Of a stretch of DNA of 64,000 nucleotides, positions 44,215 to 44,606 are shown in pieces. The translations under genes and the position numbers were made by a program. Location of the stretch: NCBI RefSeq assembly GCF_055900595.2, contig NZ_CM148325.1; one strand, given 5' to 3'. Every line of letters begins with the position of its first letter. The stretch's first letter is position 1. The notes below the pieces were generated by a model. That model did not search any database. It saw only the letters and a program-made list of their open reading frames with translations, and had not been told where the DNA came from.

Positions 44215-44606
44215 AGGGGCTTCATCCGAATTGCGCCATTGTTGCAATGGCGGTTTTTATTGTTTTTCACGACAGTAACCGCACCTACACTGTCATGACA
44301 TTGCTCGCCCCTATGTGTAACAAATAACCACACTGTGAATGTTGTCTTTAATCAATTGTAAGTGCATGTGAAATACCACTTTAGAGTTAGTCAGTATCTT
44401 CCTCTTTTTCAACAGCATGCATAACTGCATGTTCCTCAAAGAATTAATCAACTTTTGTTGCTGACCTTCAAAAATTACCCTGCCGTTTATTTGCACAATT
44501 CTACTTTTGCGTGATCTGTCGCCCAAATACTAAACAAAACTGCCAATACCCCTACATTTAACGCTTATGCCACATATTATTAACATCCTACAAGGAGAAC
44601 AAAAGC

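Follow-up and report, generated by a model that had tools for sequence, protein, structure and literature searches.

The DNA that separates nrfA from acs raises the question of whether a short intergenic stretch acts as a shared control region for two divergent operons, and which regulator sites can be placed in it. The gap was studied in a stretch of 64,000 nucleotides from contig NZ_CM148325.1 (NCBI RefSeq assembly GCF_055900595.2), hereafter called the window.

Identity and boundaries of the intergenic region

Positions 44215-44606 correspond to the whole 392-bp gap, which has the nrfA ATG on one side (44214, minus strand) and the acs ATG on the other (44607, plus strand); yjcH and then actP lie downstream of acs. 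The original prediction, made from the letters of the DNA, had given these boundaries and described a divergent nrfA-acs gap; both are exact and agree with the annotation, which is the same on an identical E. coli chromosome and on K-12 MG1655. The gap was found in 5413 of 5426 complete E. coli genomes. Its match to K-12 MG1655 extends over 391 of 392 bases, the sole mismatch being located at 44370 (G here, A in K-12). The AT-rich character that had been noticed is illustrated by a GC content of 39%, compared with 52.7% for the window.

The gap is almost certainly the shared control region of the divergent E. coli nrf (nitrite reductase) and acs (acetyl-CoA synthetase) operons, with its sites at the published positions. 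This control region is already known and thoroughly characterised, and the earlier interpretation of the DNA is right but ordinary. Its experimental characterisation is the work of the laboratories of Busby, Browning, Wolfe and Cole. When the gap is set beside the E. coli K-12 acs-nrfA region, which contains the promoters pnrf, acsP1 and acsP2, the flanking genes are the same and every site that can be placed lies at its published position. Throughout, the identity with K-12, the site positions and the conservation come from the present analysis, and all protein binding and regulatory effects come from the literature. The coordinates of the features are collected in Table 1.

Table 1. Features placed in and around the nrfA-acs gap, in the coordinates of the window.
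Feature	Coordinates	Strand	Basis
nrfA 5' untranslated leader, 93 nt, from pnrf +1 to the base before the ATG	44215..44307	-	PMC5434802 anchor
Leader hairpin 2, CGCCAUUG-loop-CAAUGGCG, +56..+63 paired with +67..+74	44234..44252	-	folding, covariation
A-rich single-stranded spacer between the hairpins	44253..44266	-	unpaired probability 0.98
Leader hairpin 1, +10..+20 paired with +31..+41	44267..44298	-	folding, covariation
GAGCAAUGUC, +2..+11, perfect complement of RyhB nt 38-47; candidate pairing site	44297..44306	-	K-12 RyhB sequence
ytcB, 18-codon ORF (MHLQLIKDNIHSVVICYT), annotated in K-12, over the pnrf core and FNR site	44311..44367	-	K-12 RefSeq
pnrf extended -10, TGTTACACA, -15..-7	44314..44322	-	sequence
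Fis-like match (Fis I), centre -15 of pnrf, over the -10	44315..44329		scan
FNR site TTGATTAAAGACAA (nrf strand), centre 44348.5 = -41.5 of pnrf; holds TTAATCAA copy 1	44342..44355		consensus scan
Invariant block between FNR and NarL sites, IHF I / NsrR region	44356..44373		scan, alignment; published IHF I
acsP1 -10 hexamer, TGAAAT here, TAAAAT in K-12	44369..44374	+	published acsP1 start (PMC2759082)
NarL/NarP 7-2-7 site TACCACTTTAGAGTTA, centre -74.5 of pnrf	44374..44389		consensus scan
Variable spacer; ~37 extra bp in Salmonella and Citrobacter	44390..44416		alignment
TTAATCAA copy 2, WATCAA-like, just upstream of CRP II	44444..44451		sequence
CRP II, weak 22-bp site, centre 44464.5 = -122.5 of acsP2	44454..44475		scan
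Fis-like match overlapping CRP II, centre -114 of acsP2	44466..44480		scan
Conserved block TTATTTGCACAATTC between CRP II and CRP I; 9/15 columns invariant	44487..44501		alignment
CRP I, core CGTGATCTGTCGCCCA (44510-44525), centre -69.5 of acsP2	44507..44528		consensus scan
Fis-like match overlapping CRP I, centre -59 of acsP2	44521..44535		scan, alignment
acsP2 -10 TATTAT (44575-44580) and start C (44587)	44575..44587	+	PMC2759082
acs Shine-Dalgarno AAGGAG (44592-44597) and start codon (44607-44609)	44592..44609	+	sequence, annotation

Start sites and core promoters

Start sites were anchored on published statements that are independent of motifs. On the nrfA side, the p+102A substitution was described as affecting the third base of nrfA Arg codon 3, changing AGG to AGA (PMC5434802). 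Hence, the A of the nrfA ATG is +94 and the pnrf +1 is 44307. On the acs side, the acsP2 start was reported to be the C located 20 nt before the acs ATG, and the acsP1 start to lie 224 nt before this ATG (PMC2759082). Applied to the window, these distances give an acsP2 +1 at 44587 and an acsP1 +1 at 44383.

The pnrf -10 element is of the K-12 type, with A at -7, whereas the stronger variant of EHEC O157:H7 has T at this position. The EHEC -10 has been printed as TATACT, a spelling at odds with the sequence, in which the one change at -7 yields TACACT. A generic sigma-70 scan returned no promoter, as expected for activator-dependent promoters, and did not confirm the promoters from sequence alone.

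Motif scans and comparative alignment

Regulator sites were searched with consensus sequences in which mismatches were allowed, not with curated weight matrices, and match counts were compared with those of 300 dinucleotide shuffles. FNR-like matches (up to 2 mismatches) numbered 2 for 0.39 expected (p about 0.06) and Fis-like matches (up to 1 mismatch) 3 for 0.57 expected (p about 0.02), while 3 CRP-like matches were found for 2.1 expected (p about 0.35) and a single NarL/NarP 7-2-7 match for 0.22 expected (p about 0.2). The IHF consensus WATCAANNNNTTR, with up to 1 mismatch, gave no match across the gap for 0.9 expected. As a consequence, IHF I-III are not placeable from sequence; since the IHF consensus is weak, the absent match is compatible with the footprints in the literature. 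Motif counts are barely above chance, and the case rests on position and conservation.

To check the original prediction, a weight-matrix scan for FNR, CRP and NarL and a comparison with the mapped acsP and nrf promoters had been proposed. The consensus scan used in place of the former found sites at the published centres, although their counts barely exceeded shuffles, and in the latter comparison the best matches likewise fell at these centres. An absence of significant weight-matrix sites, which had been put forward as a refutation, is a poor test since the sites are deliberately weak. Indeed, motif statistics alone would nearly miss these functional, weak-consensus sites, which calls for caution. 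Individual sites had been left unassigned at first; the FNR, NarL/NarP, CRP I, CRP II and three Fis-like sites are now placed, and those of IHF are not.

For the comparison between species, a search for NrfA in species-representative genomes yielded 34 loci, 25 of them with acs divergently upstream, in Escherichia, Citrobacter, Salmonella arizonae and Intestinirhabdus. The alignment consists of 24 sequences, i.e., the window and 23 of these 25 divergent loci. No acs was found within 1.5 kb upstream of nrfA in Trabulsiella, Enterobacter sp. BIGb0383, Entomohabitans and Serratia (loci L022, L023, L025, L026, L028 and L036). Hence, the shared control region appears to be confined to the group formed by Escherichia, Citrobacter, Salmonella and Intestinirhabdus.

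Regulator sites on the pnrf side

According to the literature, pnrf is a class II FNR promoter whose transcription is anaerobic and FNR-dependent, and it carries a single FNR site at -41.5 and a NarL/NarP site at -74.5. The match TTGATTAAAGACAA agrees with the FNR dyad TTGAT-N4-ATCAA at 8 of the 10 specified bases, and 12 of its 14 columns are invariant in the 24 loci. The match TACCACTTTAGAGTTA departs from TACYYMT-N2-AKRRGTA by 2 mismatches and is identical in 23 of the 24 loci. Inside the IHF I / NsrR block that separates them, an NsrR-like half-site is present on the minus strand at 44360-44370; in published work, IHF I is a repressor site, IHF III stimulates pnrf and NsrR also represses this promoter. 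Besides, the published Fis I site overlaps the pnrf -10, in agreement with the Fis-like match centred at -15, 11 of whose 15 columns are invariant.

A direct repeat, TAA[G/C]TGCATGT, occurs at 44359-44369 and 44422-44432, 63 bp apart; read on the minus strand, each copy is similar to the NsrR half-site AAnATGCATTT, the second one with 1 mismatch. In Salmonella and most Citrobacter, a C-to-T change alters the core of the first copy (44365). IHF I at -54 and the overlap of NsrR with the FNR-side block are taken here to be as in Browning 2006 and 2010, and IHF III is presumably placed at -127.

At the E. coli nir promoter, FNR occupies a class II site at -41.5 and repression by the nucleoid proteins IHF and Fis is relieved by NarL/NarP. 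As far as reference titles go, the nir promoter shares the logic of pnrf and differs from it as a separate locus without a divergent CRP-dependent partner.

The two copies of the octamer

Several TTAATCAA/TTGAT-like half-sites had been announced in the gap. The two strings quoted as examples do exist, tttaatcaattg at 44347-44358 and aattaatcaacttttgttg at 44442-44460, and TTAATCAA is indeed present, but "several" overstates the count: exactly two TTGAT/ATCAA pentamers are found, for 1.1 expected from the window rate, and both belong to the octamer TTAATCAA, at 44348-44355 and 44444-44451, 96 bp apart. This octamer has 4 copies in the 64 kb, and about 0.02 would be expected in the gap.

That an exact repeat so rare in the window has 2 of its 4 copies in the gap could mean that both octamers are equivalent half-sites of FNR or of the FNR/CRP family, i.e., that the gap holds two FNR-type operators, and a second FNR-like dyad, with 2 mismatches, is found at 44458-44471. 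However, copy 2 is devoid of a TTGAT partner at N4 spacing, the dyad at 44458-44471 excludes copy 2 and occupies the CRP II position, and the literature describes one FNR site, at -41.5. Copy 2 is also poorly conserved (1 of 8 columns invariant) and missing from Salmonella, and a pair of FNR-type operators is accordingly rated as highly improbable.

Instead, copy 1 is a perfect half of the FNR dyad. It is also located within the -35 region of acsP1, which stands back to back with pnrf; the total repression of acsP1 by FNR, as published, is explained by the FNR site covering this -35 region. Copy 2 lies in the stretch for which IHF III has been reported; it is probably the core of IHF III and not part of an FNR dyad, as judged from Salmonella, which lacks this copy and, with it, the stimulatory IHF III site reported as absent from this genus in the literature.

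Regulator sites on the acsP2 side

In the literature, acsP2 is associated with two CRP sites and with three Fis repressor sites, Fis acting as an anti-activator of CRP. The core CGTGATCTGTCGCCCA of CRP I matches 7 of 10 consensus bases, 19 of the 22 columns of the site are invariant, and its centre is that published, -69.5. A mutation from A to T, at -93 relative to the acs ATG, was described in the first CRP site (PMC2763269); in the window, this mutation maps to 44514, which is the A of CGTGA in CRP I. CRP II, found as an FNR/CRP-family match, TTGCTGACCTTCAA (44458-44471), is weak (6 of 10 on the CRP core), and its conservation is limited to the TTCAAA half. Its position, -122.5 of acsP2, is taken to be that of Beatty 2003; a class III (tandem-site) CRP promoter would have its distal dyad there, about five helical turns upstream of the proximal one. 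The Fis-like matches at the edges of CRP I and CRP II are in keeping with this anti-activator role.

An 8-bp inverted repeat, CTTTTGTT/AACAAAAG (44452-44459 and 44598-44605), was also considered and set aside, since about 1 such repeat is expected by chance and other species do not keep it.

Conservation of the sites between species

A stretch of about 55 bp, roughly 44338-44389, hardly varies and takes in the FNR and NarL/NarP sites with the IHF I / NsrR block between them; a second such stretch (44505-44537) holds CRP I and its Fis site. Near invariance is also seen at the acsP2 -10, whose TATTAT is kept in 23 of the 24 loci, in the start region and at the ribosome-binding site of acs. The mean column entropy is 0.085 in the FNR, NarL/NarP and CRP I cores compared with 0.445 between the start sites, and random placement of blocks of equal length equals the conservation of the cores with P = 0.004.

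These data bear on the reading of the gap as a mere AT-rich spacer, with motif matches due to chance and regulation taking place elsewhere. Such a spacer would account for the CRP, NarL and IHF match counts, which do not exceed shuffles, and for the lack of a sigma-70 consensus promoter. It does not account for motif matches that coincide with the published centres, for a mapped mutation that falls inside the predicted CRP I site, nor for invariant blocks lying exactly over the sites while the adjoining spacer is variable and carries a 37-bp indel. The probability of a chance spacer is next to nil, this reading being already refuted by the literature, the position and the conservation. Regarding the gap as a shared control region, the description of it as dense in regulatory repeats fails by counting, where the matches stay near shuffles, and stands by published positions and by conservation between species.

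In Salmonella and Citrobacter, nrfA and acs show the same divergence, the FNR, NarL/NarP, CRP I, Fis and acsP2 cores are invariant, and the leader hairpins are conserved. They differ by about 37 bp of additional upstream spacer, an insertion also noted for Salmonella in published pnrf work, and by a C-to-T change at 44365 that hits both the NsrR-like core and the ytcB ATG. The spacer insertion of about 37 bp (L005-L021 and others) alters how far apart the pnrf and acsP2 modules lie and how they are phased on the helix.

A rare allele at 44370 and the ytcB reading frame

The A-to-G change at 44370 converts the acsP1 -10 from TAAAAT to TGAAAT; counted from pnrf, this base is -63, within the IHF I / NsrR-like block. 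The exact 61-mer of the G allele was found in 9 of 5412 E. coli records, whereas the K-12 61-mer, shifted by one base (44339-44399, SNP still covered), was exact in 4521 of 5414 records.

Part of the same DNA is annotated in K-12 as ytcB. In 14 of the 24 orthologous loci, ytcB has lost its ATG (CAT changed to TAT) through the C-to-T change that also alters the NsrR-like core. Hence, the conservation of the block reflects DNA sites and not coding. Translation of ytcB would need a transcript starting upstream of pnrf. A literature search for ytcB returned only Bacillus papers.

A conserved structure in the nrfA leader RNA

The role of the conserved nrfA leader was called unclear in a 2017 study of pnrf, and CsrA was shown to repress nrfA translation at a GGA motif spanning codon 3 (PMC5434802). 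Two hairpins are predicted in this leader. Among 21 species, 98.2% of the pair cells of hairpin 1 form a pair in the mRNA sense compared with 75.2% on the plus strand, and the corresponding values for hairpin 2 are 98.8% and 90.5%. When the partner columns were slid by one to three, standard pairs fell from 98.2% to 26-60%. Double changes were also observed: A-U to G-C in hairpin 1 in 4 species, G-C to A-U in a short extension helix beside hairpin 2 (58-60 with 86-88) in 5 species, and C-G to U-A at a leader pair in 1 species. Many single changes give G-U wobbles in the mRNA sense and C-A mismatches on the plus strand.

The strand of these pairs matters for the hairpin and T-run at 44234-44270, which could be viewed as a plus-strand intrinsic terminator that stops antisense transcription from nrfA and insulates acs. 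A terminator scan did return a plus-strand match there, with an 8-bp stem containing 5 G-C pairs followed by GTTTTTATTG. The GC-rich stem and the T-run are thus present; however, pairing is not kept on the strand that would be terminated, the substitutions between species being G-U in the nrfA-mRNA sense but C-A on the plus strand. Moreover, no plus-strand gene or promoter lies upstream of the hairpin, where nrfA occupies the opposite strand, and about 0.5 terminator-like matches are expected by chance in the scanned stretch. A terminator is therefore considered unlikely. Since the changes are wobble-compatible on the minus strand only, the structure is assigned to the nrfA mRNA.

A scan of 43900-44900 against Rfam returned no known RNA family, only a spurious sub-threshold lncRNA match. 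[quoted passage not shown]

Candidate RyhB and Hfq sites on the leader

Repression of nrf by RyhB has been reported in two studies, as translational in one of them and under anaerobic conditions in the other; the main text consulted gives no pairing site on nrfA. The 10-nt match between GAGCAAUGUC and RyhB has a length reached in 1% of shuffled leaders, and the local duplex ranks in the top 0.4% of 22-nt windows across the whole window. Of the 21 species, 20 keep this 10-mer, and the changes seen are all compatible with wobble pairing. When the whole leader was folded as a duplex with RyhB, shuffles scored equally well, and this test was replaced by those of the longest match and of the 22-nt windows. 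On the basis of this complementarity, GAGCAAUGUC is a candidate site at which RyhB may pair. Its conservation could alternatively come from the initial transcribed region, where bases affect promoter strength, an effect published for pnrf.

An (ARN)5 run, AAAAACAAUAAAAAC (44253-44267, minus strand), shares its first base, +41, with the end of hairpin 1. Each of the 21 species has a run of 3-5 ARN triplets; in Salmonella arizonae and one C. amalonaticus, the longest run lies outside the spacer between the hairpins. This tract is a candidate distal-face site for Hfq, whose binding is inferred. As a tentative proposal, somewhat less probable than its negation, the leader may form an undescribed post-transcriptional module combining an RyhB-pairing 5' end, two stem-loops, an (ARN)4-5 Hfq tract and the known CsrA site at the AUG.

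Proposed regulation and biological meaning

On the nrfA side, the published effects combined with the positions found here suggest a single promoter, pnrf (+1 = 44307), which would be activated by FNR at -41.5 and held down by Fis over the -10 in rich medium and by IHF beside FNR. NarL or NarP bound at -74.5 would displace IHF, lifting the IHF repression. On the acs side, two CRP dimers, placed at -69.5 and -122.5, would activate the main promoter acsP2 (+1 = 44587), and Fis and IHF at overlapping or upstream sites would counter this activation. The weak distal promoter acsP1 (+1 = 44383), back to back with pnrf, would be shut off by FNR. The first 93 bases of the gap would be transcribed as the nrfA leader, the mRNA segment on which CsrA and probably RyhB act. 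The regulators named in the original prediction (FNR, NarL/NarP, CRP, IHF and Fis) agree with the annotation and the literature, and this list is incomplete, as it omits NsrR as well as CsrA and RyhB, whose target is the nrfA leader within the same coordinates.

The region is a textbook case of signal integration at divergent promoters, in which FNR reports on oxygen, NarL/NarP on nitrite and nitrate, CRP on carbon, and Fis and IHF on growth phase. The practical value of the analysis is a coordinate map of the regulator sites in this window. Two testable leads emerge, namely the rare natural allele in the acsP1 -10 and IHF I-NsrR block, and the nrfA leader RNA. If the leader module proposed above were true, the synthesis of nitrite reductase would be coupled to iron and carbon status.
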